Source: Gemmatimonadales bacterium
Lineage (GTDB): Bacteria; Gemmatimonadota; Gemmatimonadetes; Gemmatimonadales; GWC2-71-9
Assembly (NCBI GenBank): GCA_035262825.1
Contig: DATFSB010000207.1
Coordinates: 1-42,794 of the forward strand
Direction of reading: 5' to 3'
DNA length: 42,794 nucleotides
In this document: positions 16,292 through 37,224 of the stretch, in pieces
Numbering within the stretch: the stretch's first letter is position 1
Layout of the letters: every line of letters begins with the position of its first letter
Translations under genes and position numbers: made by a program
Notes under the pieces: model-generated
Told to the model about the DNA's origin: nothing
Seen by the model: the letters and a program-made list of their open reading frames with translations, nothing else
Databases searched by the model: none

Positions 16292-18472
16292 GTGCGTCAC
16301 GCGCTGGGCGCCGCATTCGTGGTCGTGGCCGCGGCGTCGTGCCGGCCCGACCACGAGGCGCCCAGCGGCTTTACCCTCCTGTTCTTCAATCATTCCCCGG
16401 CGGCCACGATCGGCGACCGGTCGTGGGCTCCCGATCCCGACCACAGCCGGCTCGTGGCGTTCGATCGCGCGCTGCAGCCGGTGCGGACGCTGGCGGGTCC
16501 GGCGATCGCCCTGCCGATGAGCGTGACGGCGCTGGGCGCCGATCTGCTCGTCAGCGAAGAAGCGGGTGATGGCGTGGTGCTCGACACTGCCGGGCAGCAG
16601 CTGCGGGAATGGTCGAGCCCGGCGCCGTTCGCCGTCGCGTCGTACAACGCAGCGGCGGGGCGCATCGTCGCGACGCGCTCGCCCTACCGCGTGCCGACGC
16701 TCGCCGCCGAGCCCGCCAATGCGCCGCTCGTGCAGCTGCTCGACACGCTGGGACGCCCCGTCGATCGCCTGGCGGTGATCCACGTGCCGCCCACCCCGTT
16801 CTTGACCGCAATCACAAACGCGGGTCCGGCGGTGCTCGACGGCGGGGGCGCGGTCTACTACGCACCGCTGGTGCGCGACGAGATCGTCAAATTCGATCGC
16901 AGCGGGATGCAGCGCTGGGTCACGCGGCGAGGATTGTATCCGAAGGAGCGCGATCCCGTCTATCTCCCCGCCAGGGGCCGCGAACTCCGCATCGACCAGG
17001 CCGTCGTCAATGTCGCCCTCGTCCTCGGACCAGACGGCCGGCTGTACGTGCTCGGCGCCGATGACTCGGCGGGGACGAAACTGCGCGTCGACGTGCTCGA
17101 CACAGCGGGCGGCGCTATCCTCGCAACACGCCACCTCGGACGGCGCGAGACGGCGGTGGCGCTCGATGCCGGCGGCCGGCTCGCGACGTTCGACGCCGAG
17201 TCGCTCGCGGCACGCGTGCCGGGCGACGGCCGTGAGCCGTTCGCGCCGGCATTCACTCTACCCGACACGAGCGGCGACACGCTGACCCTGGCCCGCTTCG
17301 CGGGCAAGGTGACGCTCGTCGACTTCTGGGCGAGCTGGTGCGACCCGTGCCGGGAAGAATTTCCGCACATGATCGACCTGTACCGCCGCTACCAGCGCAG
17401 CGACTTCGACATCGTCGCGATTTCCGACGACGTCGATCGGGCCAAGATGCTGGCGTTCGTGCGCCGGTATCGCCCGCCGTTCGCGGTGCTGGTCGGCGGC
17501 GGCCGGATGAAGCAGCAGTATCATTACCGCGGCCTCCCCTACTCCGTTCTGCTGGACCGGAGCGGCCGGGTGATCGAGCGCTATTTCGGATTTGGTGGCG
17601 CCGCAGAATTCCAGCGGCTGGCGGCGACGGTGGAACGCGAGCTAGCCGCGAGTCCCGCCCCGGCCGGCGAGCGGTCCGGCGACAGCGGCACGACGCTGGT
17701 CGGCGCGGGGGACATCGCCGATTGCGACTCGCACGGTGACGAACAAACGGCCGCCCTGCTCGACCGCATCGCCGGCACCGTGTTCACAGCCGGCGACAAC
17801 GCGTACAGCGATGGAACGGCGGAGCAGTTTGCGCGCTGCTACGCGGGGAGCTGGGGACGGCACAGGGCGCGGACACGACCCGCCCCCGGGAACCACGATT
17901 ACAGGAGCGACGACGGGGCGCCCTACTTTCATTATTATGGCGCGCTCGCGGGACCCGCGGGGCGCGGGTACTACAGCTACGACGTCGGGACGTGGCACGT
18001 GATCTCGCTCAACAGCAACATCGACATGCGCGCCGGATCGCCGCAGGAGCGGTGGCTGCGGGACGACCTGGCGGCGCACCCGAGCGCGTGCGTGCTCGCC
18101 TACTGGCACCATCCGCGCTTCAGCTCGGGCACGGAACACGGCAGCGACCGGCGTACGCGCTTCCTGTGGCAGGCGCTGTACGACCACGGCGCCGACGTCG
18201 TACTCGCCGGTCACGAGCACAACTACGAGCGCTTCGCTCCGCAGACTGCGGAGGGGGCGGCGGATGCGGCGCGGGGAATCAGGGAATTCGTGGTCGGAAC
18301 GGGCGGGGCGGATCGCTACGCCTTCGGTCCGCCTCTCCCCAATAGCGAAGTGCGCAACGGCGACGTGTGGGGCGTGCTGAAGCTGACGCTCCTGCCCGGA
18401 CGCTATCGCTGGGAGTTCGTCCCCGTCGCCGGGATGTCCTTCAGCGATTCGGGGCTGGGACGCTGCCACTAG
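16292..18472 (+). CDS. Lipoprotein fusion: propeller-like N-domain + TlpA-like thioredoxin + calcineurin-like metallophosphoesterase, 726 aa
   Basis: Lipobox VAAASC. FWASWCDPCREEFP is the thioredoxin CxxC. GDIADC, GDNAYSDG, GNHDY and GHEHNYERF are metallophosphoesterase motifs. Confidence 0.8.
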   Translation: MRHALGAAFVVVAAASCRPDHEAPSGFTLLFFNHSPAATIGDRSWAPDPDHSRLVAFDRALQPVRTLAGPAIALPMSVTALGADLLVSEEAGDGVVLDTAGQQLREWSSPAPFAVASYNAAAGRIVATRSPYRVPTLAAEPANAPLVQLLDTLGRPVDRLAVIHVPPTPFLTAITNAGPAVLDGGGAVYYAPLVRDEIVKFDRSGMQRWVTRRGLYPKERDPVYLPARGRELRIDQAVVNVALVLGPDGRLYVLGADDSAGTKLRVDVLDTAGGAILATRHLGRRETAVALDAGGRLATFDAESLAARVPGDGREPFAPAFTLPDTSGDTLTLARFAGKVTLVDFWASWCDPCREEFPHMIDLYRRYQRSDFDIVAISDDVDRAKMLAFVRRYRPPFAVLVGGGRMKQQYHYRGLPYSVLLDRSGRVIERYFGFGGAAEFQRLAATVERELAASPAPAGERSGDSGTTLVGAGDIADCDSHGDEQTAALLDRIAGTVFTAGDNAYSDGTAEQFARCYAGSWGRHRARTRPAPGNHDYRSDDGAPYFHYYGALAGPAGRGYYSYDVGTWHVISLNSNIDMRAGSPQERWLRDDLAAHPSACVLAYWHHPRFSSGTEHGSDRRTRFLWQALYDHGADVVLAGHEHNYERFAPQTAEGAADAARGIREFVVGTGGADRYAFGPPLPNSEVRNGDVWGVLKLTLLPGRYRWEFVPVAGMSFSDSGLGRCH

Positions 18473-18917: not shown

Positions 18918-19754
18918 TCAGAAGTTGAACATGACGCCCACTTCGGGGGCGATGTCGGTCGCGTTGGGTGTGAATCCCCAGCCGTTGTTCAGCTTGATGA
19001 TTGCGTTGCGCGCGAACCGCCATTGCACCTCTGTGAGGAGCGAGATTTCATCGACCTGGCTGCCCTCGATCGCCGTGATGATCCGCCAGGACTGCGACAC
19101 CTGCCGCATGTACTCGATCGCGTATTCCCCGGCGTCGACCACGTGGTCTGTGTACTCCGCGCCGGCTCGGAAGGTCATGGTGCCCCAACTGAAGCCGCGC
19201 GTGAGGCCGAAGCCCGCACTGAACTCCCAGTCCTGCGTCCCGATGATGTGCCGCGTGCGCTGGAGTGGGAGAACTGTCTCGAAGAATGTGAAGACCTCGG
19301 GCCGGTGCTCGTTCTCTCGCTGCACGCGCCAGCGGATCTGTCCTTCGACGTCGCCGAGCCCCGATTCGCGGATCCGCTGCGGCACGGTGGCCGAGTCCAG
19401 ACGGTCCTTCCGGAGCTCGGCGGTGATCACCGCGGATTCGAATTCCACCATGAGATCGGGCGTCAGGCCATAAGCGAAATACAGGATCCCCTCGGACGCG
19501 CGGAACCGACCTCGGTAATCGTGATTCAGGCCATACCCCAGTTCGCTCGGCTTGTATTCGAGGTTGTGATCGGCGTACCACTCGAAGAAGGGGTAGATCA
19601 GCAGCTCGCCGTCGCGGACGTACGTGCCGAGCATCGACGTCCGGACGCCGGTGCCCCGATCACGCAGATAGGAAGGGAGGGGCTGGGTCTGCGCCGAGGC
19701 GATTGCAGGAGCTGCGGCCAACGCGATGAGCAGTGCTGCGGAGCGCCAAGCCAT
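18918..19754 (-). CDS. Outer-membrane beta-barrel protein, family not recognised, 278 aa
   Basis: Signal peptide ending ASAQ, alternating amphipathic strands and C-terminal ...VGVMFNF (terminal Phe). Confidence 0.65.
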   Translation of the reverse strand: MAWRSAALLIALAAAPAIASAQTQPLPSYLRDRGTGVRTSMLGTYVRDGELLIYPFFEWYADHNLEYKPSELGYGLNHDYRGRFRASEGILYFAYGLTPDLMVEFESAVITAELRKDRLDSATVPQRIRESGLGDVEGQIRWRVQRENEHRPEVFTFFETVLPLQRTRHIIGTQDWEFSAGFGLTRGFSWGTMTFRAGAEYTDHVVDAGEYAIEYMRQVSQSWRIITAIEGSQVDEISLLTEVQWRFARNAIIKLNNGWGFTPNATDIAPEVGVMFNF

Positions 19755-19943
19755 TCAGCCTCCCCGTTTGAGGAGCTTCTGAGCAGCGCCCACTATGAAA
19801 GTTCCTGCACCGACCAACGTTCCGTCGACGGCGTTAGCGGGCGTGTCGAACTGCCCCGCATCATACTGTTCCTTGAGTTGCAAAACCACGAAAGCGATCA
19901 CGGCGATCTTCAGTGCTTCGCCCAGGATGCTCTTCCAGCTCAT
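19755..19943 (-). CDS. Small membrane protein, 62 aa (hypothetical)
   Basis: Fits exactly between the porin stop (19954) and the barrel start (19754). It has two hydrophobic segments, and its 3' end supplies GGGGAGG before the next ATG. Confidence 0.5.
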   Translation of the reverse strand: MSWKSILGEALKIAVIAFVVLQLKEQYDAGQFDTPANAVDGTLVGAGTFIVGAAQKLLKRGG

Positions 19944-19953
19944 GGTGCCTCAC

Positions 19954-21045
19954 TCAGAAGGTGACGGTGGCGTTGAGGCGCACCCGATGCTGCCGCTCAC
20001 GCGGCGCGCTGGGCGCCACTAAATGGGGGCGGTAGAGGTACCAGGTCGCGTTCAGCAGCAGGCCACTCAAGGGGATCGCGTCAAAGGCCAGCGTGTGCGT
20101 CTCTGTGTTGGTGCCGATCGTGGTATTGTCGTGCGAAAAGGCCGCGAGCACGGCGTCGGTTTCGACGACCGCATACCCATAGCGCCAGCGCCAGTCGCGC
20201 GGGCGTTGCGCCCGGCCGACGTACAGATCGGCCTGCCAGCCGGTGTTGAGATCAGCGGCCCCGCCATTGTGAACGTAATCCCCCACTACCCGGAGCGGCC
20301 AGCGCTCTCCCAGTCCCAGGTGCTCGACGGTGAGCGTTGCATTGAGCAGATCGAAGTCCGAGAGGTAGCGACCTCCACCCGGGGCGAGCCGGTTGGTCCG
20401 GGTGTCGCCTGCATCGGCGTTGAGCAGGCTGCGGACCCGGTAGTCGTAGTACGCGGCCGCCGCGGCGACGCGCCAGGCGCTGTCGGGCGTCGCCCGCAGA
20501 GTGAGCTGGGCTCCCCCCATGTCGCTACCGAGGCCGCCGGTCTGTTGATCCACGATGAAATAAAGGCCGGTGAGCGTTCCCGTGACGCGCGCGGGACTGC
20601 CGGCGATCAATCGGCCTCCCACGCCTTGCGGGTTCACATCGCCGTCCCATACCAGCTCGGTGGGCGCGAAGAAGGGATTGTTGAATTTTCCGCCCACCGC
20701 GCCCCAGCGGCGCCGATTCACTTCGATGGCGGCGATGTCGAGACTCATCTCGAGGTCGTTGACGAACTGGCTCAGCGTCACGTCGGTCGAGTTGGGGTCG
20801 TTCCCCGATCCGGTCGCGAGTCGCGCGCGAACCGCCACGTCCTCGCGCAGCGCGTAGGCGATACCCGCGCGCAACCGCACGACCTCCTTGCTGCTCGACA
20901 GCGCGCCGTTCGCCTGACTGGTGTTCTCGTAGCGCACCCGGAAATCGCCGGTAAAGCGAAGCGGCGAGTGCGTCTGCGCCGGCGCGCCTTTCGCAGCGAG
21001 CGCCAGCGTAACGGTCGCGCACAGGACGCGCGCGCTATTCCTCAT
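19954..21045 (-). CDS. Putative porin (Porin_5-like beta-barrel), 363 aa
   Basis: Signal peptide, LRFTGDFRVRYENT opening strand and C-terminal RLNATVTF. Confidence 0.6.
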   Translation of the reverse strand: MRNSARVLCATVTLALAAKGAPAQTHSPLRFTGDFRVRYENTSQANGALSSSKEVVRLRAGIAYALREDVAVRARLATGSGNDPNSTDVTLSQFVNDLEMSLDIAAIEVNRRRWGAVGGKFNNPFFAPTELVWDGDVNPQGVGGRLIAGSPARVTGTLTGLYFIVDQQTGGLGSDMGGAQLTLRATPDSAWRVAAAAAYYDYRVRSLLNADAGDTRTNRLAPGGGRYLSDFDLLNATLTVEHLGLGERWPLRVVGDYVHNGGAADLNTGWQADLYVGRAQRPRDWRWRYGYAVVETDAVLAAFSHDNTTIGTNTETHTLAFDAIPLSGLLLNATWYLYRPHLVAPSAPRERQHRVRLNATVTF

Positions 21046-21349
21046 GAGTATCCACCGCTCCGGTCAGCGCGTCGACGCTGACTTCGGTGATGCCGCGCTT
21101 GCCGGCGATCTTGACGTCCCATACCCACACCAGTTTTCCGTGCTCGCGCAGCAGCTCCACCGCCTCGATGCTGCCGGGGAGCTTGGTGAGCGCCAGCACG
21201 CGGGCCGAATCCTCACTGATCTTGGCCTGTGCGAGGAGCGCTGGCGGAATATCGCGCTCATACGCCGGCCGCTGCGGCTGCTGGGCGGACACAGTCTGCG
21301 GTCCGAGGGCGAGCGCAAGCACGAATGCCCCTGCGACGAGATGCTTCAT
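21035..21349 (-). CDS. PepSY domain protein, 104 aa
   Basis: Internal ATG at 21349 with GGGAG SD, and a signal peptide. ISEDSARVLALTKLPGSIEAVELLREHGKLVWVWDVKIAGKRGITEVSVDALTGAV is a PepSY fold signature. Confidence 0.7.
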   Translation of the reverse strand: MKHLVAGAFVLALALGPQTVSAQQPQRPAYERDIPPALLAQAKISEDSARVLALTKLPGSIEAVELLREHGKLVWVWDVKIAGKRGITEVSVDALTGAVDTHEE

Positions 21350-21398
21350 GCGACACTCCCGTTTCTGTTGGGTCCTGCGGGCTCGAGCACGGTGCGGG

Positions 21399-23702
21399 TT
21401 ACGCACCGCCGCCCGCGTCGATCTCACGATGCCGCCGGCGATAGACCATGAAGATGATCGCGCCCAGCACGACGGGTCCTCCGATGGCGTACGGCAGCAC
21501 GCCGCCTGGGTTGAGCCGCGTGTACTTCGTGACGATCAAGTGCATTCCTGGGCTGGTCACCGGATGGCTCGTCGCTTCTGGCCCAGCCGGCGCCGGAATG
21601 CCGACGGTGTACACCATGAAATTGCCGTCGAGAATCGCGTTGACCCGCCAGGCGAGGCTGACCGACTGCCCGGGAGCGACCGGCTCGGTGTACTGCGTGC
21701 GCTGCGGCGACCAGTCTTCCGGGTCGACGACGTCCCCGCTCGCGTTGAGGTTGATGATGTTCATCGCCACGATGAGCGGCGGCGTCGGACTCGACCCGTT
21801 GTTGGTCAGAACGGTGTTGTATTCGATGGGAGTCCCCGCTCGGACCGTCTTGGCGGTGACGTCGATCGACAGCTGGACCTGCGGATCGGCCACCTGTTGC
21901 GCCAGCAGCGGGGCCGCTCCGAGCCCGAGCAGCGCCGCGAGGAGCAGCACGGCTGCAACCCGCTCCCGCGCCGCCTGGAAGAGGCGCGTGCGGCCGGCTT
22001 CCAGTCGCAGCTCGGGACCGGCGTACCAGAACAACAGTGCGAACGCGAAGACGGCGAACACGATGCACGACAACATCCACGACCACGCCCGGTCCAACGT
22101 CCAGTTGTTCACGAGGATGGCGGCGAGGAAGAATTTCGGCGCCGCTAACGGATTCAACCATTGAAAGAGGAGTCCCATGAATCCACCTTGGGCGTGCCCG
22201 GTGAGTTGAGTGGGGAGCAGGAAGAGGACGTACAGACACAGACTGATGAACAGGCTGGTCTTGTTCGAGTTGCACCAGAAACCCACGAACATCGCCATTG
22301 CCGTGAAGCCGAGCGTCAGCACGAGGCCGAGCCCCCCACCCCACAGCACTGCCTGGCTGAACACCTCGTCACCCTGCGACAGCACCCACATGTAGGGAAT
22401 GGCGATCAGCATCGCCACCGGCCCGGGGGACGCCGCCGCGAGGAACTTGCCGAGCACGATCTGGCGGCGACTGGTCGGGGTGAGCAGCAGCCCCTCGAGC
22501 GTGGCGCGCTCCCGTTCCCCGCTCAAGCTGTCGGCGCCGATAATGAGGCTGACGAACACGCTCGCGATCATCGCGGCTTTGGTGAGCTCGAACACCATCT
22601 CCTTCGGCGGGATGAGGCTCAGGCTCGAGTCACGCGCCGTGATGTAGGTGTAGATCCCCAGTACGATGGTGTAAGCGACGGTCAACTGCAGCGCTTTCCC
22701 TCCCACCCAGAGGTCGCTGAGCTCTTTCCTGAACACCACCCACCAGGTTGCGACGCTGCCCGCCGGTACCGGAGTGGCCAGGCGCTCGCCACGCGGTTTC
22801 GGAGCGGGAACGGGCAGTGCTGCTTCCGGCCAGACGGTGGTGGTGGGCGCCCGCCGGGACGGCCGCGGCGCTTTGGCGCTCCAGCGCTTCCAAAGGCGGC
22901 CTAACCGTGTTGCCATCGCAGCGTCGAGTCGCAGACGACGCGCGGCTAAGGCGAACAACACGAGCAGAACGATCGCGGCGAACGAACCCGCCAGGATGGG
23001 GAGATACCACGCCTCCGACACGGGCCGGCCCTGGCCCACCACCTTGCCAAGGAATTGCGCCGCTGCTTCCCATGGGTTCACGAACGTATAAAGCAGCGTG
23101 CGCCGCACCTCGATCACGGTTTGATGGATTCGCGGCCGGGACAACTCGGTCGGCAACAACAGCAGGAGGTAGAGACAGAGACTGACCATCATGCTGGTCT
23201 TGTTCGAGTTGCAGGCCATGCTGACGAGCAGGCCAATGCCGACCAACAGGGCGGCCAGGATCGTACCCAGCACGGTCCCCCACAGCAGCGCCTGCCAGAA
23301 GACCGGATTGCCTTTGGCAAGCACCGCCCAATAGGGGATCGCGATCATGAGCGCGACGGGCCAGGCGGAGAAGGCAGCGAGAAACTTGCCCACCGTGATC
23401 TGCCGCCGGCTCGCCGGGGTCAGGAGCAGCACTTCGAGCGTGGCCCGCTCCCGGTCGCCGGCGAAGGCGTCCGCCGCTGCCACGAGGCAAATGAACGCGG
23501 CGATGGCGATCGAATGCCGCACCATCTCCTGGATCATTTCGGGCACCGGCAGCAGCAAGGTGTCGGCGTTGCTGGCGAGCAGATAGGAGTATCCGCCCAG
23601 CAGCAGGCTGTAGATGAGGATCAAGTACAGTGCCTTGCCGCCGACCCACAGATCCCTGGTCTCGCGCCGGCAGACCACCCACCACGAAGTCGAAATAGCC
23701 AT
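21399..23702 (-). CDS. Fused double ABC-2 permease (two homologous 6-TM modules) + TM + Ig-like periplasmic domain + TM anchor, 767 aa
   Basis: Module 1 is aa 1-262 (WWVVCRRETRDLWVGGKAL, GDRERATLEVLLLTPASRRQI, CNSNKTS). Module 2 is aa 318-572 (WWVVFRKELSDLWVGGKAL, GERERATLEGLLLTPTSRRQI, CNSNKTS). An Ig-like domain spans aa 604-730, followed by TM VLPYAIGGPVVLGAIIFMVY. Confidence 0.85.
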   Translation of the reverse strand: MAISTSWWVVCRRETRDLWVGGKALYLILIYSLLLGGYSYLLASNADTLLLPVPEMIQEMVRHSIAIAAFICLVAAADAFAGDRERATLEVLLLTPASRRQITVGKFLAAFSAWPVALMIAIPYWAVLAKGNPVFWQALLWGTVLGTILAALLVGIGLLVSMACNSNKTSMMVSLCLYLLLLLPTELSRPRIHQTVIEVRRTLLYTFVNPWEAAAQFLGKVVGQGRPVSEAWYLPILAGSFAAIVLLVLFALAARRLRLDAAMATRLGRLWKRWSAKAPRPSRRAPTTTVWPEAALPVPAPKPRGERLATPVPAGSVATWWVVFRKELSDLWVGGKALQLTVAYTIVLGIYTYITARDSSLSLIPPKEMVFELTKAAMIASVFVSLIIGADSLSGERERATLEGLLLTPTSRRQIVLGKFLAAASPGPVAMLIAIPYMWVLSQGDEVFSQAVLWGGGLGLVLTLGFTAMAMFVGFWCNSNKTSLFISLCLYVLFLLPTQLTGHAQGGFMGLLFQWLNPLAAPKFFLAAILVNNWTLDRAWSWMLSCIVFAVFAFALLFWYAGPELRLEAGRTRLFQAARERVAAVLLLAALLGLGAAPLLAQQVADPQVQLSIDVTAKTVRAGTPIEYNTVLTNNGSSPTPPLIVAMNIINLNASGDVVDPEDWSPQRTQYTEPVAPGQSVSLAWRVNAILDGNFMVYTVGIPAPAGPEATSHPVTSPGMHLIVTKYTRLNPGGVLPYAIGGPVVLGAIIFMVYRRRHREIDAGGGA

Positions 23703-23717
23703 CAGCTTCCTCCAGCC

Positions 23718-24551
23718 TCAGCGGGTCGCGGACAACCGAAACGGACTCGTTCCGCCCGATTGCAGACGGAGCCGTGGTCCGGCATACACGAACAGCAGGG
23801 CGACCACGACGATGAGAAACACGACCGGCCCTTGCAGCCAGTCGCCGTAGGTATGCAGGGTCTGGTTATTGACAATGAGCCGTTCCAGCAGCTGGTCGGC
23901 GGCCGCCAGCGGGTTCGAGCGCTGGAAGAACTTCCCGACTAGTCCCTTCTGCGCCCGGCCGGGTAAGAGCGCGGGCAAGAGGAACAGCAGGTACATCGAG
24001 AGACTGATGAACAGGCTGGTGCGATTGGAATTGGACCAGTAGCTGACGAGCATCCCGAGCCCCGTAAATCCGATGACCACCATCGTGCCGACGAAGACGG
24101 CGTACAGGAGCGCGGGCATGAGAATCGGATCGCCTTGGGAAACGACGAGCACGCACGGGAATGTGACGGCCAACGCCGCCGGCCACGGCGACATGCTGGC
24201 GAGGAACTTGCCGACGACGATCTGGGTCCGGCTGGCGGGCGTCAACAACAGCGTTTCCAGCAGCTCCCGGTCGCGCGCGCCGCTCAAGGTGTCGGCGCCG
24301 ATGAGCAGGCCCATGAACACACCGACGTACATGCAGGTCTGCAGGATCGACCAGACCATCTCTTTGGGGGGCGTCAAGTCCATCTGACTCCACCTGACCT
24401 GGAGATAGGTCAGCACTCCGATCACGACCGTGTACACGAGCAGCAGCGTCAGCGCTCGACCGCCGACCCAGAGCTCCTGCAGGTCGCGGCGGCAGACCAC
24501 CCACCAGGCCGCGAGACCCGGGCCGACAGGCGCCGGACGGCCGTCCCTCAC
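23718..24551 (-). CDS. ABC-2 family permease (module B), 277 aa
   Basis: I prefer the GTG at 24551, which forms a GTGA overlap with the upstream stop. Motifs: WWVVCRRDLQELWVGGRAL, GARDRELLETLLLTPASRTQI, SNSNRTS. Confidence 0.8.
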   Translation of the reverse strand: MRDGRPAPVGPGLAAWWVVCRRDLQELWVGGRALTLLLVYTVVIGVLTYLQVRWSQMDLTPPKEMVWSILQTCMYVGVFMGLLIGADTLSGARDRELLETLLLTPASRTQIVVGKFLASMSPWPAALAVTFPCVLVVSQGDPILMPALLYAVFVGTMVVIGFTGLGMLVSYWSNSNRTSLFISLSMYLLFLLPALLPGRAQKGLVGKFFQRSNPLAAADQLLERLIVNNQTLHTYGDWLQGPVVFLIVVVALLFVYAGPRLRLQSGGTSPFRLSATR

Positions 24552-25396
24552 GTGGGTCTCACCCGCAAGCGCCGCATACCAACTTCCAGCTGCAGGGACG
24601 GTCCGGCGTAGACGAAGAGCACGGCGAGCACGACGGCCGGCAGGAGAATCGGGCTGGTCATCCACAGCCACAGCTGTGAGGCCGGGGCGTCCGCCATGAT
24701 GCTCTCATGGAGCAAGCGACTGCTTGCGCCCAGCGGGTTGACCAATTGGAAGAGGTCGGACAGGCCTGTCGATTGGGCGCCGACTGTCGTGGTCGCCAGG
24801 CCCGAGTACTCGGACGGCAGAATCATGAGAAGGTAAAGGCCGATGCTGACGAGCATGCTGGGCTTGTTGGAATTGCTCCAGATGCTGGCGAGCATGCCGA
24901 TGCCGGCGAATGCAGGGGCGAGCAGCGTTCCCACGACCGGCCCCCACAGCAGCGCCGCCCGCAGCACCGGATCGCCCTTGGAGAGCACCACCCAGTACGG
25001 GATGGCGATCATCAACGTCGCCGGCCAGAGGGACAGGGCGGACAGGAATTTTCCCAAGATGATCTGCCGCCGGCTGGTGGGGGTGAGCAGCAGTCCTTCC
25101 AGCGTGGCGCGCTCGCGCTCGCCCGACACAGTGTCGGCACCGACGATCAGGCAGATGAACAATCCCACGAACACCGCAGCCTTGACGATCTCCAGCACCA
25201 CCTCTTTCAACGGCAGCAGCTGCAGCTCCGAGTTGCTCGCGAACAGGTACGCGTAGATCCCGAGCAGCAGGGTATAGATCAGGATCATGACCAGCGCTTT
25301 GCCGCCGACCCAGTGATCCCGCAGCTCCCGCCAGAACACGATGCGCCAGACCGGCGCCGCACGCGGCGCCGGTGAGCGATCGTCGGCTAAACTCAC
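24548..25396 (-). CDS. ABC-2 family permease (module A), 282 aa
   Basis: I prefer the GTG at 25396 (GTGA overlap with the ATPase stop). Motifs: VWRIVFWRELRDHWVGGKAL, GERERATLEGLLLTPTSRRQI, SNSNKPS. The longer track ORF, extending to 25747, would overlap the ATPase by 350 nt. Confidence 0.8.
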   Translation of the reverse strand: MSLADDRSPAPRAAPVWRIVFWRELRDHWVGGKALVMILIYTLLLGIYAYLFASNSELQLLPLKEVVLEIVKAAVFVGLFICLIVGADTVSGERERATLEGLLLTPTSRRQIILGKFLSALSLWPATLMIAIPYWVVLSKGDPVLRAALLWGPVVGTLLAPAFAGIGMLASIWSNSNKPSMLVSIGLYLLMILPSEYSGLATTTVGAQSTGLSDLFQLVNPLGASSRLLHESIMADAPASQLWLWMTSPILLPAVVLAVLFVYAGPSLQLEVGMRRLRVRPT

Positions 25397-26376
25397 TTGA
25401 TGCCCCCCGCCGTGAGCTGCAGGAAGACGTCTTGCAGCCGCCCGCCTTCGGGCTCGAAGCTCAAGACCGGGATCTCCGCGCGCAGCAACGTGTCGAGGAC
25501 GCGATTGTTGACAAACGGATCCGCCGCGGCGGCTTCGTCCAGCTCCACCCGCAACCACCCCGGCATGCCGCTCGCCGGCAGAACCTGGCGAACAGAGGCG
25601 ATGGTGCCGAGCTCCCGCTGGGCGTCTTCCAAGGACTCGGGCGGCACGCGAATCCGCATCATGTTCTGCTCGGTGCGCCCGATGACGTCGGCCACGGTCC
25701 CGGAGGCGACACATTCTCCGGAGCTCATGATGACGACATCGTCGCACACGCTTTCCACCTCCGGCAGGAGATGGCTGCAGAGAATGACACCCGCGCTGCG
25801 CTCTTCGGCGATCTGCTGTACCAGGCCGAGCAGCTCCTGTTGCCCACGCGGGTCGAGGCCGATGGTCGGCTCGTCGAGGAACACGACCACGGGGTCGTTC
25901 ACCAGCGCGCGCGCGATGCCGATCCGTTGCCGCATGCCGTGGCTGTACGTGCTCACGAGCGAGCGGGCGCGCTGCTTGAGTCCCACCTCCTCCAGCAGCT
26001 CCATCCCCACCGCCCGGGCATCGCTCGCGGTGCGTCCGTAGAGCTGACCGAAGTAGGTCAGGTACTCGATACCGGTCATTTGCTTCGGCAACCCGAAGCT
26101 CTCGGGCAGCACCCCGATGCGGCGGCGGATCTGATCGGGATATTCGTGGCTGATCCCGTCGACGGAGAAATGACCGGCGTCGGGCTCCATGATCGTGGTC
26201 AGGATGCGGATCGAGGTCGTCTTCCCCGCGCCGTTCGGTCCGAGGAAGCCCAGCAGCCGGCCCGCTTTGAGGACGAAGGAGAGCCCCCGCAGAGCCATTC
26301 TCGGTCCGTACGATTTCTGCAGACCTTCGGCAACGAGCACTTCGGTCCGCCGCGGAGTCGTTTCACTGTAGGTCAT
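25393..26376 (-). CDS. ABC transporter ATP-binding protein (ABC-2 type) with C-terminal accessory domain, 327 aa
   Basis: Walker A GPNGAGKTT, Q-loop, signature YSHGMRQR, Walker B VVFLDEPTIGLD, H-loop CSH. Confidence 0.9.
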   Translation of the reverse strand: MTYSETTPRRTEVLVAEGLQKSYGPRMALRGLSFVLKAGRLLGFLGPNGAGKTTSIRILTTIMEPDAGHFSVDGISHEYPDQIRRRIGVLPESFGLPKQMTGIEYLTYFGQLYGRTASDARAVGMELLEEVGLKQRARSLVSTYSHGMRQRIGIARALVNDPVVVFLDEPTIGLDPRGQQELLGLVQQIAEERSAGVILCSHLLPEVESVCDDVVIMSSGECVASGTVADVIGRTEQNMMRIRVPPESLEDAQRELGTIASVRQVLPASGMPGWLRVELDEAAAADPFVNNRVLDTLLRAEIPVLSFEPEGGRLQDVFLQLTAGGIK

Positions 26377-26402
26377 AGCGGGTCACCGCTCCTTCGGGTG
26401 CG

Positions 26403-29400
26403 TCAGGGGTTTGCCAAGCTCGGCGCCGGCCCGCCGGCGCTCCGCGCGATGCCGAACCGCAGGTAGAGGCTGGGTGCCACGAACAGATTCAACAGCGTCG
26501 ACGTGATCAGACCGCCGAGGATGACGATCGCCATCGGATACTCGATTTCGTGCCCGGGCTTATCGCCGGCGATCAGCAGCGGCACGAGCGCGAGCCCGGT
26601 CGCCAAGGCCGTCATGAGAATCGGCGACAGCCGCTCGCGGGCGCCGCGCAACACCAGCGCCGGGCCGAGCGCTTCGCCTTCGAAACGCTCCAGGTGCTGG
26701 TAATGGCTCATCAGCATGATCTGGTTGCGCGCGGCGATGCCGAAGATCGTGAGGAAGCCGACCATCGACCCCAGCGAAATCACGTCGCCCGTGAAGTACA
26801 CGGCCAGCACGCCGCCGACGAGCGCGGAGGGCAGGGTCAGGAAGCCGAGCACCGCGAGCCGGGTGTTCTCGAACGAGGCGAGGAGGATCAGGAACACGCC
26901 GATCCCCGCCGCGATCGCGAAACTCAGCAGCCGGGTCTGGGCCTCGTCGCGCTCGGCGTACTCGCCCAGCACGACGGCGTGGTAGCCGAGCGGGAACTTG
27001 ATGTGCTCGAGGCGGTCGTCGACCTCATCCATCACGCCGGCCAGGTCGCTCCCGGTCACTTCGGCGCCGACGTCGATGCGGCGTGAATCGTTTTCACGGT
27101 AGATCACGCTCTGCGCCGGTACGATGCGGACGGTAGCGACGTCCCCCAGCCGCACCTGCCCGCCCTTGGGCGTGTCGATCGGCAGATTGCGGACGCTGGT
27201 GAGGCTCTGGCGGGTGGCGGGGGTGCTCCAGACGTTGACGTCGTACGCCTTGCCGTCCCGGAAAATGTCGCCCACCTCTTCCCCCGCGAGCAGCGTGCCC
27301 GACGCCCGCCGCACGTCGCCCGGTTTGAGCCCGTAGCGCTGTGCCGCGGCGAGATCGACTTCGACCTGAATCTGCGGGACCTGCGACTGCAGCTGCACGT
27401 TCAGGTCGGAGAGGCCGGCGATCCCCGCGAGCGAATCGCGCACCTCCTCCGCCTTTTCGTGGATCACGTCGAGGTTGGGTCCGTAGATCCGCACCACGAA
27501 CGTCTGACTCGAGCCCGACAGCACCTCGTCGATCCGCTCGTTGAGGTAGGTCTCGACGTTGTGGAACAGTCCGGGATAGCCGTAGACGACTCCCTCGATA
27601 CGGGAGATCGTCTCGTCGTAGTCCGCCGCCGGATCGACGCTGATCCAATTCTCCCCGAAGTTGACGCCGTTGAGCTCGTCGGCCAGCAGCGCCTGCCCGA
27701 TGTGCGAGCCGAAGTTGCGGACGCCGGGAATGGCGCGCAGCTCGCGGCTCAATCGCGTGACGATGCGCCGTTCCTCGTTCACGGAGCTGCCGGGCTTCGT
27801 GATCCAGTGGATCAGGAAATCGCGCTCCTTGAAATGGGGGAACAGCGACTCGCCGAGCAGCGGGACGATGGCGGCCCCCACCACCATGACGACGGCGGTG
27901 GCCAGGAACGCGTGCCGCGGACGCGCGACGATGCGCCGCAACGCCCGCTCGTAGATCCCCTGCAGCCACCGCACCAGAGGCTGGCGCTGGTGCTCAATGG
28001 GAGTGCGGCGCAGCAGCAGGTAGCACATCGCGGGCGTGACGGTGAGCGCGACGACCATGGATGCCAGCACCGCGAGCCCGTACGCGATCGCCATCGGCTG
28101 GAAGAAGGCGCCGGAGAGGCCGCCCATGAAGATGACGGGGATCACCACGACGGCGTCGATCAGCGTGGCGTGCACGATCGCCTGGCGCACCTCGAGCGAC
28201 GCCTCGAGGATGATGCGGGCGGTCGACAGGCTGCGCCCTTCCTGACGTGCCAGGCGCAGGCGCCGGGTGATGTTCTCGACGTCGATGATCGCGTCATCGA
28301 CCACGACGCCGATCGCGATCACGAAACCGGCCAACATCATGGTGTTGATGGTCGCCCCGCTGAGGTACAGCACCAGCGCGCCGGCCGTCAGCGACAGCGG
28401 GATGGCGACCATGCTGATCAGCGCAGTGCGCCACTGGAACAGGAAGGCGATGATCACCAGCATCACGAGGATGCAGCCGAGAATCAGGGCGTGCGACAGG
28501 TTGTCGAGCGCGACCTGAATGAAGTCCGCGGGGCGGAAAATCGTCGGATCGAGGTCGACGCCCTTCAACCCGGGGCGCAGCTCGTCGAGCGCCGCTTCCA
28601 CGCCGTGCGTGACGTCCAAGGTGTTGGCCCACGGGAACTTCTCGACGACCAGCATCAGTCCCGGACCGTCGTTGATGACGGCGTCGCCGAACAGCGGCCA
28701 CGTGTCCCATACGACGTCCGCCACATCGCTGAGTCGCAACGGAGTGCCGTCGCTCTTGCGCCGGTCCTGGATGGGCACCTGCCCGAGGTCCTCCGGCGAG
28801 GAAATGGCGAGAACGTGGCGGATGCCGAGCCGCTGGTTGGGCGTCTGGATGAAGCCGCCGGTGCCGATCACCGCTCCTTTGGAGAACTGCAGGATGCCCA
28901 CGTCGAGCGCGTCGGCGGTGACTTCCATGACCTGATCGAGCGAGACGCGCCGCTCCCGCAGCCGGTCGGGATCGACCTGCACCTGCGGCATCTTGATGCG
29001 CTCCCCCCAGATCGCCACGTTGGCGACCCCCGGCACGCCCAGCAGGCGCGCGCGGATCGTCCAATAGGAGATCATCGAGAGGTCCATCAGCGAGATGTCC
29101 TTCGACGACACGCCGATCTTCATCACGCGACCGGTCGAGGAGACCGGAGGGATGATGACCGGCGGCGCCGCCCAGGTCGGCAGCGTCGTGAGGACGTTGG
29201 TGAGACGCTCCTGCACGAGCTGCCGCGCCCGCACGACGTCGGTCCCAGGCTTGAAGAGCAGCTCGATCGACGACAGATCGGGGATCGACTTGGAGCGCAT
29301 CAGATCGAGCCGATCGAGACCGTTGAAGGCCTGCTCCAGCGGCACGGTGACCAGCGCCTCGACCTCCTCGGCGGACAGCCCGAGGCTCGGCGTCTGGACC

Positions 29401-29546
29401 TCAACCCGGGGCGGCGCAAACTCGGGGAACGCGTCCACTGGAGTGTTGGGGAGCTGGGCGATGCCATACACCATCATCGCGACGGCCCCGGCCAGCACGA
29501 TGAACCGGAACCGCAAGCTCGCGCCGACGATCGCTCGCATCATCAT
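26403..29546 (-). CDS. CzcA/CusA-like RND efflux permease (RND-1), 1047 aa
   Basis: PVDAFPEFAPPRVEVQTPSLGLSAEEVE N-terminus, TM4 AIGVVVDDAIIDVENITRRL and a 12-TM, two-large-loop layout. Confidence 0.9.
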   Translation of the reverse strand: MMMRAIVGASLRFRFIVLAGAVAMMVYGIAQLPNTPVDAFPEFAPPRVEVQTPSLGLSAEEVEALVTVPLEQAFNGLDRLDLMRSKSIPDLSSIELLFKPGTDVVRARQLVQERLTNVLTTLPTWAAPPVIIPPVSSTGRVMKIGVSSKDISLMDLSMISYWTIRARLLGVPGVANVAIWGERIKMPQVQVDPDRLRERRVSLDQVMEVTADALDVGILQFSKGAVIGTGGFIQTPNQRLGIRHVLAISSPEDLGQVPIQDRRKSDGTPLRLSDVADVVWDTWPLFGDAVINDGPGLMLVVEKFPWANTLDVTHGVEAALDELRPGLKGVDLDPTIFRPADFIQVALDNLSHALILGCILVMLVIIAFLFQWRTALISMVAIPLSLTAGALVLYLSGATINTMMLAGFVIAIGVVVDDAIIDVENITRRLRLARQEGRSLSTARIILEASLEVRQAIVHATLIDAVVVIPVIFMGGLSGAFFQPMAIAYGLAVLASMVVALTVTPAMCYLLLRRTPIEHQRQPLVRWLQGIYERALRRIVARPRHAFLATAVVMVVGAAIVPLLGESLFPHFKERDFLIHWITKPGSSVNEERRIVTRLSRELRAIPGVRNFGSHIGQALLADELNGVNFGENWISVDPAADYDETISRIEGVVYGYPGLFHNVETYLNERIDEVLSGSSQTFVVRIYGPNLDVIHEKAEEVRDSLAGIAGLSDLNVQLQSQVPQIQVEVDLAAAQRYGLKPGDVRRASGTLLAGEEVGDIFRDGKAYDVNVWSTPATRQSLTSVRNLPIDTPKGGQVRLGDVATVRIVPAQSVIYRENDSRRIDVGAEVTGSDLAGVMDEVDDRLEHIKFPLGYHAVVLGEYAERDEAQTRLLSFAIAAGIGVFLILLASFENTRLAVLGFLTLPSALVGGVLAVYFTGDVISLGSMVGFLTIFGIAARNQIMLMSHYQHLERFEGEALGPALVLRGARERLSPILMTALATGLALVPLLIAGDKPGHEIEYPMAIVILGGLITSTLLNLFVAPSLYLRFGIARSAGGPAPSLANP

Positions 29547-29989
29547 TCTTCTTCGAACTCCGATTCACTGCCGAACAGCTCGGCGGCCCCGACGGTCACG
29601 ACCGTTTCGCCGAGACCGGGACCGGTCGACAGCACCGCGAGATCGCCTGTGACCGATTCCACCGTGACCCGCGTGCGGATGTAGGTGAACGGCTCCGGGT
29701 TGGTGTACGCCCACGCCTGACCCTCCGCGTCATAGAGGATCGCGGCGTACGGGATCACCTTGCGCATCAGGCCGTTGACCGTGGACCGCCGCACACCGAC
29801 GGTTTGAATGTCGAGACGCCGGGCGGCTTCCTCGGTGAGGATGAGGCGGTTGACATCGTCGCCGGCGATCGGCTCGACCTTCACCGCCTTCGCCGTGCTC
29901 TCTTCGCTCGCCTGATTGCGACCGCACGCTACCAGCGGCAGCCAGGCGACGATCAGCGCCGCTCGCCACGCGGGTATCCGCGAACTCAT
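29543..29989 (-). CDS. Small lipoprotein resembling only the membrane-proximal part of an RND periplasmic adaptor, 148 aa
   Basis: ATG at 29989 is preceded by AGGAGG. Lipobox LPLVAC. LILTEEAARRLDIQTVGV is an MFP N-terminal strand. VIPYAAILYDAEGQAWAYT..FTYIRTRVTVESVTGDLAVLSTGPGLGETVVTVGAAELFGSE is an MFP C-terminal pattern. ATGA overlap with RND-1. Confidence 0.75.
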   Translation of the reverse strand: MSSRIPAWRAALIVAWLPLVACGRNQASEESTAKAVKVEPIAGDDVNRLILTEEAARRLDIQTVGVRRSTVNGLMRKVIPYAAILYDAEGQAWAYTNPEPFTYIRTRVTVESVTGDLAVLSTGPGLGETVVTVGAAELFGSESEFEEE

Positions 29990-30002
29990 GCGTTCCTCCT
30001 GA

Positions 30003-33000
30003 TCACGATTTAGTGACGCCCAACGCGGCAACGTCCGCCAGGCCGGCGGGTAATTCCACGTCGCCCCGTTGCGCGGCTGTGACTTGCAGTACCAGGTACA
30101 TCGAGGGCAGCACGAACAGGGAGATCAGCGTCGCGGTCACGAGGCCGCCCAGCACCACGACCACCGCGCCACGCACGACTTCGAGCCCGGGGCGGTCGCC
30201 CGCCAACAGCGTGGGAAGGAGCGCCAGGGCAGTGACTACCGCGGTCATGAGGATCGGCGCCGCGCGCTCGACCGCCCCGCGCATCACGAGCCCCGCGCCG
30301 AACGGCTCGCGACCCTCAGCTTCCAGCTGGTGATAGCGCGAGAAGAGCTGCAGGGTGTTGCGGATGGTGAAGCCGAGCACGATGAGCAATCCGACGAGCG
30401 ATCCGATGGAGATCGTGTCTCCGCGCGCGGCCGCCGCCGCGAGTCCGCCCACCAGCGCGGCCGCTGCGGTCGCGAGGCCGATCCCGGCGAGTCGCCAGCT
30501 CCCGATCGCCGCCTGCAACAGCAGCAGCATTCCAATCATGGCCGCCACCGCCAGCAGCAATGCCCGTTGATGGGCTGTCTCGCGCTCGGCGAACCCGCCG
30601 AGCACCTCCGCGTGATGCTCCAACGGCATTGGAACGGTCTGCAGGCGGGCCTCGATGTCACCAGCGACGGTGCCGAGATCGCGCCCGCGCACTCCGACGA
30701 TCACGTCGAGGTAGCGCTTCACGGCCTCGTGCCGAATTGCGCGGGCACTCGACACGATGCGGACTTGCGCCACGTCTCCCAGCCGGACGCTGCCGCCGCC
30801 AGGCGTATCGATCATCAGGTCGCGCACACTGTTGAGGCTGTGGCGCGTTGCCGGCTCCCCCCACACTACCACGTCGAAGACCTTTTGCTCTTCGAACAGA
30901 TTGCCGACCTGCAGTCCGGAAAACATCGTGGCCGCGGAACGCCGCACGTCACCGGGCTTGATGCCGTGACGCTGTGCCGCAGCGAGATCGACCTCGACCT
31001 CCAGCACCGGTTCTTGCGCCGGCTGATCCAGCCGCGCGCTGGTCACGCCTCCGACCTCGCTGACCGCTTTCGCCACAGCACCCGCCGCGGTGCGCAGCAC
31101 CGCATCGGCGTCGCCGTAGACGCGGACAACGATGGAGTCACGGGCCTGCGCGTTCAGCGGCTCCGTGCGCTCGCTGAGGTACGTCTCCACTCGCGGACGC
31201 AGGCCGGGGTAGCCATTGACCACCGTGCGGACGGCGGCGACGGTGCGATCGTAATCCGCCGTCGAATCGACGCTGACCCAAAGCTCGGCGGAATTGACGT
31301 TGACGACCTGGTCGCCGAAGATCGCCCGGCCCAGGTGTGCACCGACATTGGAGACGCCGCGGATGGACCGCAGCTCGAGGCTGACGCGTCCGGAGATGCG
31401 GCTCATCTCGGGCTGCGACGTGCCCGGGGCGCTGGTGAGATGGACCAGCAGGTCCCGCTCGGCGAACTTGGGCAACGACCCGCCGGAGCGCCCCACGAGC
31501 GGCAGCAGGGCGAATCCGACGATCAGAACCGGCGCGACAATCGCCACCGGACGCCACGGCCGCTGCAGCGTTCGCGCCAGAGCTCCTTCGTACCACGCCT
31601 GCAGCCGTCGGACGAACGGCACCTCGCGCGACGGCGCGGGCGCGCGCGGCAACAGCACGAGACCGAGGGCAGGCGTGACCGTCAGGGCGACCACCATCGA
31701 CGCCAGGACGGCGAGGACATACGAGCCCCCGAACGGGCGCCAGAACGCCGCGGGCACGCCGCCGAAGACGAGCAGCGGCAGCAGGGACAGCAGCAGGATC
31801 AACGTGGCGAACACCGCCGCACCGCGCAGCTCGGCGACGGCGGCGACGACGGCAGCCGCGGGCGATTCGCCGCGACCGTCGCGGAAGCGGCGCCGCATGG
31901 CGTCGACGTGAAGGATCGCGTCGTCGACGATCACGCCGAGTGCCATGAGCATCCCGCCAAGCACCACGACGTTGACCGTCGCACCGCGCAGATAGAGGAC
32001 CCAGGCGCCGGCAATGAACGAGGTGGCGATGGCGCTGATCGCAATCAGCGTCGCACGCCAGTCGGAGAAACCGATGGCGATCGCAATGGCCGCAAGCGCG
32101 AATCCGATGAGCGCGACCCAGCCGAGGTTGTGCAACGCCGATTCGATGAAGCCGGCGGGCCGGAAGATCGACGAATTCACCTCGAGGCCGGTCATACCGG
32201 GGCGCAGCTCGGCGAGGGCCGCTTCGACGCCGCGCGTCACATTGTGCAGATTCGCACCGGGGAAGCGGTCGACGACCAGGAGCAGGTTGGCGCTGCCGTT
32301 CGTCAGCGCGTCGCCGATGAGCGGCTGGTGTCCTTCGACTACGTCGGCCACGTCGCCCAGGCGCACGCCGGTGGCTTCGATCGGCACCTGCGCCAGACCT
32401 TCCGGCGACACGATCGGCAGGATGTGGCGGATCCCGAGCCGCTGATTGGCGTTGTCGATGAAGCCGCCGGTGCCTGGCGTCGAAGCCTCAACGAAGCTGA
32501 GCGACGAGACCCACAGCGCGTTGCCGGTGGTTTCGAGCACCTGCAGCAACGACACGCGGCGATCGTGGAGCCGTTTCGGATCGACCAGCACCTGCAGCTG
32601 GCGGTCGCGCTGCCCCCAGATGGCCACGTTCGCGACGCCTTGGACGCCGAGCAGGCGCGGAGCGATGGTCCAGCGCGCCAGGACCGACATCTGGATCGGG
32701 GACAACGTCTTCGAGGACAACCCGATCAACATGACCCGGCTCGTGGACGACATCGGCTGCAGCATTGTGGGCGGCCGGGACACGTGCGGCAGGGCAAACG
32801 CCTGGGTGAGCCGCTCCGACACCATCTGACGGGCTCGCATCAGATCCGTCCCAGGCCGGAAAGTCAGGACGATCGACGACAAGCCCGGGACCGATTCCGA
32901 ACGCAGCGACTCGAGCCACGGTACGCCATTGAGCAGGTCCTGCTCCAGCCCGAGCGTTACCAGCTGCTCCACCTCCTGGGCAGAGAGTCCCAGGGCTTCG

Positions 33001-36923: not shown

Positions 36924-37224
36924 ATCCGTCCTCCGCAGCAAATTCTCTGCGCGCATTTCCCCGTGCGTGCGTCGTCCAACCCGGCTAACGGCGGAGTAAC
37001 GGTGGGGTCGAACGTTCCGCGTCACCATACATGCGCGGATAGGACGACGTATAACTTTTGGTAGCATGGTTCTATTGCCGAGCCCGCGCATCATCGCGGC
37101 CGTTCTGCCACAGAAGGGTGCGACATTTTCTCCTATCGGCATCACCGCGCGCGGGCTATTTTTTCGCCTGTCGCATCGCCGTCTATCGCAAGACCGAGAG
37201 TGAACCGGGCGCGAGACATCGCCT

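Follow-up and report, generated by a model that had tools for sequence, protein, structure and literature searches.

A type V ABC exporter locus of Gemmatimonadales in which one ATPase gene may serve two paralogous membrane pairs

Exporters of the ATP-binding cassette (ABC) superfamily are usually described as two transmembrane domains (TMDs) combined with two nucleotide-binding domains (NBDs). The locus considered here, on contig DATFSB010000207.1 of a Gemmatimonadales bacterium (GenBank assembly GCA_035262825.1), raises the question of what four homologous ABC-2 membrane modules are doing behind a single ATPase gene: two of them are separate permeases, A and B, and the other two, C1 and C2, are joined in one fusion protein that ends in a further domain, here called the tail. 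We suggest that the operon encodes a type V exporter in which two alternative, paralogous membrane pairs, A·B and C1C2-tail, share the one ATPase gene, and we put the probability of this reading somewhat above even, at about 0.55. The earlier note on this DNA, made from its letters, had offered two heterodimers on one ATPase as one of two options; the heterodimer A·B gains from five relatives in which A and B are a single polypeptide, and the sharing of the ATPase is what we infer from the gene arrangement. Throughout, the window is the whole stretch of 42,794 nucleotides (nt) that was analyzed; coordinates of its features are window positions, and all genes of the ABC operon lie on the minus strand.

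The operon opens with the NBD gene, which encodes an ABC ATPase of 327 amino acids (aa) at 25393-26376 (PF00005, 5e-27) and has no second NBD gene beside it in the operon. Permease A (24548-25396, 282 aa; PF12679, 4.5e-20) starts with a GTG that overlaps the NBD stop codon in the tetranucleotide GTGA, the start of permease B (23718-24551, 277 aa; PF12679, 1.7e-14) overlaps the stop of A, again in GTGA, and the fusion gene (21399-23702, 767 aa) begins with an ATG 15 nt past the stop of B, with a GGAGGA ribosome-binding site in front of it. The co-encoded ATPase characteristic of a type V system is thereby present, in the form of the PF00005 gene just in front of A, with which it shares the GTGA overlap. 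The lengths and coordinates of all four genes agree exactly with those first read from the sequence, and the four homologous modules reported then behind a single NBD gene are all real and intact.

The kinship of the modules is clear from several sides. A profile search against the ABC2_membrane families, one of the checks that the earlier note had suggested, places each of the four in PF12679 (ABC2_membrane_2), with 72.5 bits for A, 54.2 bits for B and, in two stretches, 110.4 bits for the fusion; the curated gathering cut-off is 27.2 bits. Pairwise identities, a second such check, were computed over ~260-270 aligned residues and descend from 50.8% (A-C1) through 49.6% (A-C2 and likewise B-C2), 45.2% (C1-C2) and 43.9% (A-B) to 38.7% (B-C1), a range of 39-51% that lies well beyond chance. 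The motifs that first drew attention to the modules are present, namely an N-terminal WWVV..RE...LWVGGKAL, GERERATLE.LLLTP.SR.QI..GKFL, (C/S)NSN(K/R)(T/P)S and a closing AGP.L.LE.G. They hold with small deviations from the patterns as originally written (C1 has RET for RE/DL, A ends in FLS, and B has LRLQ), and the closing motif of C1 is indeed degenerate, reading AARRLRLDAA. The N-terminal connecting helix and the (G)ERERATLE motif of the coupling helix are kept in all four modules. By sequence and by fold, these proteins belong among the permeases of the ABC-2/type V ABC exporters.

The fusion protein had been taken for two halves. Both modules are there, C1 at aa 1 to ~270 (22893-23702, the first PF12679 stretch) and C2 at aa ~316-571 (21990-22757, the second PF12679 stretch), with a cytoplasmic, Pro/Arg-rich linker between them (aa ~271-315; 22758-22892), but the tail, at aa ~572-767 (21399-21989), had been overlooked. 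An AlphaFold2 (AF2) model made from a 79-sequence alignment (predicted local distance difference test, pLDDT, 76.8; predicted TM-score, pTM, 0.72) predicts two units of a connecting helix plus six transmembrane (TM) helices, followed by the tail. C1 is modelled as an interface helix and six TM helices with a pLDDT of mostly 83-97, and the helices of C2 span residues 319-561; the linker is disordered in the model (pLDDT <50 for residues 276-310) and is variable in length and sequence among fusion homologues. In the tail, two helices at residues 572-592 and 736-766, the 13th and 14th TM helices, stand on either side of strands at 610-725 that form a predicted periplasmic beta-sandwich of ~115 aa, and the chain closes with a cytoplasmic RRRHREID. 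Foldseek finds that the sandwich resembles the CARDB structure 3idu (TM-score relative to the target, TMt, 0.74; E 0.01); no Pfam family covers the tail. Among homologues it is conserved more strongly than any other part of the fusion (VDPEDWSPQRTQY; WRVNAILDG(N/D)(F/Y)MVY), and the motifs VDPEDWSP.R.QY and W..N.I.DG are invariant. The tail is joined to the last module in 82 of 82 loci, and it can also stand alone, in proteins of ~170-210 aa; a search of a library of 50%-identity representatives found 337 proteins at E <= 1e-3. More than 100 full-length homologue clusters of the fusion, at 52-91% identity, come from metagenome-assembled genomes (MAGs) of Gemmatimonadales, Acidobacteria and Binatia.

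To place the window among its relatives, one genome per species was scanned with the tail motifs, the best 80 of 214 confirmed hits were fetched, and the components of the cluster were mapped by phmmer onto the related loci, of which the set holds 83 (numbered with an L below). Between NBD and tail, 46 of the 73 complete loci have one module, mostly in Chloroflexota, Vicinamibacterales and KSB1; two modules are present in 19, four in 7, and five in one (L005). L080, from the isolate Thermalbibacter longus, has the single-module form. Of the two-module loci, 6 have their modules fused and 12 have a gene for each, and fusion and fission are common in the family. From these counts we regard a tail-bearing ABC exporter in a cluster with pumps of the resistance-nodulation-division (RND) type as the conserved core, and the number of modules as its variable part. 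That number is still changing, to judge by L005, whose fifth module (L005 9052-10780) is a second intact copy of B that branches at the base of the window-lineage B clade, in a locus whose fusion is 91% identical to the window's. In L022, from a MAG labelled Intrasporangium, the two modules (L022 10001-11710) are each other's closest relatives (bootstrap 96), which suggests an independent and recent internal duplication, and other duplications, likewise independent, seem to have taken place in the Anaerolineae loci (L019, L060, L075 and L076) and in the L018/L039 group. L018, from Acidobacteriota, has in addition to its main set of NBD, two modules and tail an extra NBD gene with a tail-less B-like module (L018 1794-3580), placed ~6 kb upstream of that set; this extra unit appears to be an accessory tail-less transporter with its own ATPase.

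At least four modules are found in the window, L001, L004, L005, L006, L016, L017, L020, L021, L084, L085 and L087. Those that come from named assemblies, leaving aside L084 (GCA_009772025.1), are Gemmatimonadota, L001, L085 and L087 being from metagenome contigs, and A+B is an accessory pair in a Gemmatimonadales clade of these 12 loci, the window included. In every four-module locus there is a single NBD gene beside the modules, so that one NBD gene stands for two TMD pairs in all of them. Whether relatives conserve the fourfold arrangement, a question left by the earlier note, has a divided answer: the arrangement is old and is kept in the clade, but most relatives have one or two modules.

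Where the second pair came from can be read from a neighbour-joining tree of 116 modules (Kimura-corrected distances, 257 columns, 100 bootstraps). A type-1 clade stands apart from all other modules (bootstrap 95) and is made up of C1, the first modules of the two-module loci of Gemmatimonadota and Acidobacteriota, and the A clade, which is monophyletic (bootstrap 99) inside it. A type-2 clade (bootstrap 83) unites C2 with the second modules, and B is monophyletic (bootstrap 100) on the type-2/single-module side. Two loop signatures, G.AQ.G..G..Q..NP and LVNN after the fifth TM helix, are found in single modules, in C2 and in B, and neither A nor C1 has them. Profiles of the two types, built only from one- and two-module loci, score every A ortholog as type-1 over type-2 by 32-50 bits and every B ortholog as type-2/single-like over type-1 by 55-75 bits, B scoring best against the single-module profile. 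Taken together, the tree, the loop signatures and the independent profiles identify A+B as a second type-1 plus type-2 pair, A being a type-1 (C1-like) module and B a type-2 (C2/single-like) module, both without a tail. The simplest origin would be a duplication of a whole two-module gene, followed by loss of the tail from the copy. A recent local duplication, which the earlier note had thought would follow if only one pair were ever retained, was dropped as an explanation in view of the two old monophyletic clades, A and B, which extend across loci with fusions 52-96% identical to the window's. Relatives with a single pair do exist, and in this tail-seeded sample the retained pair is always the tail-bearing one.

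The pairing of A with B is argued from their fusion. In L006, L016, L017 and L020 they are a single open reading frame (ORF) that reads A, a Pro/Arg-rich linker of 60-90 aa, and B, an order that mirrors C1-linker-C2; for L084, an independent gene caller lists a 613-aa protein with two PF12679 domains between the NBD gene and an 800-aa fusion. Two TMDs in one polypeptide, with the NBD in a separate gene, are the state of C1C2 in the window and of AB in these five relatives, which supports A·B as a pair by the Rosetta-stone argument. The A and B genes are split in the window, L004, L005, L001, L085 and L087, with GTGA or ATGA overlaps; AB was one fused gene in the ancestor and was split in the window lineage into two translationally coupled genes. 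Fused or split, A and B always co-occur, and in the same order. The AB protein of L017 is collinear with the C1C2 fusions at 40-52% identity, and AF2 models it as a compact unit of two TMDs (pLDDT 83.2, pTM 0.79) that aligns over 574 columns with Rv1217c, a mycobacterial permease to which we return below (TM-score relative to the query, TMq, 0.52). This model and that of C1C2 match NosY at a TMt of 0.73-0.75. The window's own A and B are placed in the type V fold by alignment only. A MAFFT alignment of the AB fusion with standalone orthologs was discarded; it had stacked all A orthologs on the B half.

Selection has treated the two pairs alike. Ratios of nonsynonymous to synonymous substitution (dN/dS; Nei-Gojobori, seven locus pairs from close to distant relatives) are 0.08-0.32 for A and 0.11-0.23 for B, next to 0.06-0.37 for C1, 0.07-0.29 for C2 and 0.04-0.23 for the NBD. 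When the window is compared with L016, A (59% identity) and B (67%) are better kept than C1 (48%) and C2 (58%), and standalone orthologs in metagenomes fall into more than 70 clusters for A and more than 70 for B. On these grounds the A+B pair appears to be functional and under purifying selection like that on C1 and C2. Pseudogenising modules, which had been named beforehand as an observation that would count against a working four-module system, were not encountered: no stops or frameshifts interrupt the modules of the window, L001, L004, L005, L006, L016, L017, L084, L085 or L087. L021 was left out of this comparison. It is a nanopore MAG, and the breaks in its NBD-A and C2-tail regions were put down to the assembly and not to pseudogenes; where the NBD seems to read through into A, and where the frame is lost between C2 and tail (L021 7956-13153), indels of assembly are the probable cause.

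Several points weigh against this reading and should be set beside the evidence for it. L002, L011 and L012 are two-module loci from which A+B is absent, and in the trees of both C1 and C2 they fall together with L016 and L017, which have four modules (bootstrap 100); their gene order is the same as that of L016/L017 apart from A+B. Since the pair is absent from loci nested in this way, it is dispensable in some lineages, accessory and not obligatory, and it was lost at least once or, alternatively, moved laterally. The survey was seeded by tail motifs, which puts loci with A+B and no tail outside its reach. The tree was built by neighbour-joining only, and within it the exact sister group of B is weakly placed (bootstrap 18-43). 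Finally, the alignment for the AB model consists mainly of paralogous C1C2 fusions, so that its two-domain packing is partly inherited from them and the model is a less independent witness.

How might such an operon work? In our reading the core is the C1-linker-C2 fusion carrying its membrane-anchored, CARDB-like periplasmic domain, and A+B is a second pair, a tail-less copy of the C1C2 design with type-1 followed by type-2. Each pair would most likely dock on a homodimer of the single NBD, and the two resulting transporters, NBD2·A·B and NBD2·C1C2-tail, would share, and possibly compete for, one ATPase. Acting together with the two co-encoded RND pumps and the lipoproteins, they could use ATP to extract or flip a hydrophobic or lipid-like compound of the cell envelope; in favor of a lipid-like substrate is the NBD, which comes closest to those of the ABCA lipid exporters and to the drrA subfamily. 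The tail would then be a periplasmic docking or hand-off element, and A·B a tail-less variant that widens the substrate range or works uncoupled from periplasmic partners.

The RND pumps and lipoproteins in this proposal are taken from the genes around the operon, a context that, like the C-terminal periplasmic domain, had been overlooked at first; both are relevant to function. A conserved supercluster occupies 18918-37145 of the window on the minus strand, and its order of transcription is DUF5916 protein, p313, RND2, p162, RND1, NBD, A, B, C1C2-tail, PepSY, Porin_5, p278. RND pump 1 (26403-29546, 1047 aa; PF00873, 2.8e-220) lies upstream of the NBD gene across a gap of 26 nt. RND pump 2 (30003-33146, ~1047 aa; PF00873, 2.6e-166) has an uncertain start codon, and its ORF reaches 33431. 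Both are divergent RND proteins, the best NCBIfam match being CusA/CzcA TIGR00914, below its cut-off (556 bits for pump 1, against 701). Between the two RND genes lies p162 (29543-30031), a predicted lipoprotein with the lipobox LVAC|G, and on the far side of RND pump 2 lies p313 (33149-34090), a predicted periplasmic lipoprotein with the lipobox TLAC|G; neither has a match in Pfam (E up to 10) or NCBIfam, and p313 has none in the PDB. At the other end of the ABC operon are a PepSY protein (21035-21427; Pfam, 2e-06), a Porin_5 outer-membrane protein (19954-21045; Pfam, 1.4e-22) and p278 (18918-19754), which has no family match; all of these genes are on the minus strand. For neither RND pump was the gene of a conventional membrane-fusion protein detected.

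The linkage is widespread. Among 42 well-flanked loci, 38 have an RND gene no more than 10 kb from the ABC genes, p162 is present in 33 and p313 in 25, and 25 have at least two RND genes; p162 and p313 keep their place beside the RND genes in many phyla. Chloroflexota, Gemmatimonadota, Acidobacteriota and KSB1 are among the groups that carry the supercluster; in diderm lineages it is extended by PepSY, Porin_5, p278 and DUF5916, and the first three of these recur in the loci of Gemmatimonadota and Acidobacteriota. We found no description of this supercluster in the literature. On the plus strand, divergent from the cluster, are a GAF/HisKA_3 histidine kinase gene (37225-38949), a candidate regulator of the cluster, and a 212-aa ORF (38952-39590). 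Beyond p278, at 16292-18472 on the plus strand, a thioredoxin/AhpC-TSA domain and a calcineurin-like metallophosphatase are fused in one protein of 726 aa; in L087 the same Pfam domains occur in a 727-aa protein near the cluster, and in L001 and L086 Metallophos-domain proteins lie near it. The GC content is 64-70% throughout the window, which has the many long spurious antisense ORFs usual for high-GC DNA, for example at 27459-29684 and 30069-33191, opposite the RND genes.

Read at its widest, this neighborhood would be one undescribed envelope export machine, made up of the ABC genes, the CARDB-like tail, the two paralogous RND pumps and p162/p313 and conserved from Chloroflexota to Gemmatimonadota. 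In a machine of this kind the type V exporter may feed the RND pumps or couple to them mechanically through the tail, and the added tail-less TMD pair may compete for the ATPase and so act as a switch between RND-coupled and uncoupled export. We think this unlikely as it stands.

Among explanations that give the four modules another arrangement, the one that survives best is the second option of the earlier note, a higher-order complex in which A, B, C1C2-tail and NBDs come together as a dimer of transporters or a four-TMD ring. Tight translational coupling in one operon (the GTGA overlaps and the 15-nt gap) is in its favor, as is the service of all modules by one NBD gene; the trees of A, B, C1 and C2 are, moreover, broadly congruent, which indicates that the modules were inherited together. 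Yet the core makes do with one or two modules in 65 of the 73 complete loci, A+B can go while the rest stays (L002, L011 and L012), a fifth module is tolerated in L005, and the solved type V exporters, the fused Rv1217c among them, have two TMDs per NBD dimer (PMC11406275). A complex of all four modules is, in our judgment, doubtful.

A somewhat poorer prospect is that A and B became unpaired after the gene split and now assemble as A2 or B2, so that one ATPase would serve as many as three transporters. They are, after all, separate proteins in the window lineage, homodimers of a single module are what the family shows most often (46 loci), and B is closest to the single-module profile. Against this, A and B are fused in five relatives, which argues for an A·B pair, they are always found together, in fixed order and translationally coupled, and their type-1 plus type-2 make-up mirrors that of C1C2.

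We regard it as very improbable that A+B is powered by an ATPase encoded elsewhere in the genome and not by the adjacent NBD. L018, where the extra tail-less B-like module has an NBD gene of its own, indicates that separate ATPases for accessory modules exist in the family. In the window, however, the A gene begins within the stop codon of its neighbor, the NBD gene, the coupling-helix motif is kept in all four modules, and there is no second ABC-2-type NBD in the 42.8 kb; nor is a second NBD found beside the modules in the other four-module loci. One candidate for a second NBD nearby was considered and dropped: the only other NBD in the window is MlaF, 17 kb away, in an MlaFED-type operon on the minus strand (MlaE, 4317-5117; ABC ATPase, 3553-4503; MlaD-domain protein, 2657-3958) that is unrelated to the finding.

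Least credible of all is that A and B are redundant leftovers of duplication, drifting to loss with no function of their own, as their absence from some relatives nested among four-module loci might suggest, for their dN/dS (0.08-0.32 over the two) equals that of C1 and C2, their ORFs are intact in at least 10 loci among orthologs only 57-67% identical, all motifs are kept, and between the window and L016 it is A (59%) and B (67%), not C1 (48%) and C2 (58%), that have changed less.

If A·B and C1C2-tail do share the ATPase, the locus would be a natural system in which to ask how one NBD dimer chooses its membrane partners. This lineage has long kept two complete paralogous TMD pairs behind one ATPase gene; to our knowledge, ATPase sharing, well known for importers, is hardly documented for type V exporters. 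The family as a whole offers a series that runs from a homodimer (one module) through a pseudo-heterodimer (two, fused or split) and a duplicated pair (four) to five modules, and these repeated steps in module number make it useful for studying how ABC transporters become asymmetric. The conserved periplasmic tail and the near-obligatory link to two RND pumps and two lipoproteins across phyla point, in a larger context, to an uncharacterized envelope export system in bacteria that are abundant in soil.

The known systems nearest to this one differ according to the component that is compared. The top NCBIfam match of the NBD is TIGR01188 (drrA) at 229.1 bits, short of the cut-off of 312.45: the DrrA subfamily is the closest, but the NBD is not a member of it by the NCBI threshold. 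Its nearest solved relatives are the NBDs of ABCA4/3/7/1 (1e-54 to 1e-49) and NosF (5e-43). NosF and NosY belong to NosDFY(L), which assembles copper centers in the maturation of N2O reductase; NosY has one module, works as a homodimer and docks NosD, a periplasmic beta-helix protein. The modules resemble NosFY (PDB 7O0Y and others) in belonging to PF12679, in an NBD that resembles NosF, and in structure, where NosY is the best match (TMt 0.75 for the fusion); it is also the only sequence-level match in a PDB profile search, and it differs from the modules at ~20% identity. Many homologues bear the Joint Genome Institute (JGI) name 'multi-copper enzyme maturation permease', a COG-level label only. 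Pfam scans of the neighboring and other large ORFs of the window detected no NosD, NosZ or NosL domains, and the NosFY identity that the JGI name suggests was dropped for want of that context, the relatives carrying RND, porin and lipoprotein genes instead.

The best permease-level NCBIfam match of the modules is GldF, of the GldAFG transporter of gliding motility. Its accessory protein, GldG, has two TM anchors with a periplasmic domain between them, a topology that the tail resembles; the tail also occurs free-standing, and is itself a small CARDB-like domain. The scores are far below their cut-offs (47.7, 19.2 and 52 bits for the permeases against 288.5 for GldF, and 185.5 against 402.6 for GldA), no GldG homologue (ABC_transp_aux) was detected in a Pfam scan of the neighboring ORFs, and the GldAFG identity was dropped accordingly.

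Rv1217c of Mycobacterium tuberculosis has two non-identical TMDs in one polypeptide, seated on an Rv1218c homodimer (PDB 8K1M-8K1P; PMC11406275). Rv1217c-Rv1218c is like C1C2 in its type V fold, its two fused TMDs and its separate NBD gene, and Foldseek aligns the fusion with Rv1217c over both halves (~616 columns). The likeness is one of fold and architecture only: Foldseek identity of the 8K1x chains to the C1C2 and AB models is 14-16%, and the PDB profile search, which finds only NosY, gives no relatedness at the level of sequence. Rv1217c-Rv1218c also differs in having one TMD pair, no C-terminal periplasmic domain, no RND neighbors and a known rifampicin phenotype.

In mycobacteria the type V exporter DrrABC acts with an RND protein, MmpL7, and a lipoprotein, LppX, to export phthiocerol dimycocerosate (PDIM) lipids (PMC11539658). 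The operon has in common with it a DrrA-like NBD and two different ABC-2 TMDs on one NBD gene, and DrrABC together with its RND and lipoprotein partners offers a functional analogy for the ABC-RND-lipoprotein linkage. ABC-RND cooperation in our operon, by contrast, is suggested only by gene linkage; DrrABC has one TMD pair and no tail domain, and the RND proteins of the window are AcrB/CusA-like, not MmpL. The NBD score of 229.1 bits, below 312.45, led us to drop DrrABC as an identity.

One ATPase energizing several sets of membrane components is familiar from the multitask ATPases MsmX, MsiK and MsmK and from the group II energy-coupling factor (ECF) transporters. Those importers differ in that their genes are usually dispersed and their folds unrelated to the present one; here the membrane components are paralogous exporter TMDs in the operon of the ATPase. 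We searched the literature for NosY-like permeases in fused or tandem form, for gene clusters of Gemmatimonadetes that combine RND with ABC-2, and for type V systems with a single ATPase, and such an arrangement was not described in what we found; a doubled TMD pair behind one NBD gene, a CARDB-like tail and an RND embedding are absent from the literature searched. Two alternative transporters on one ATPase would seem to be the most economical model for the operon.

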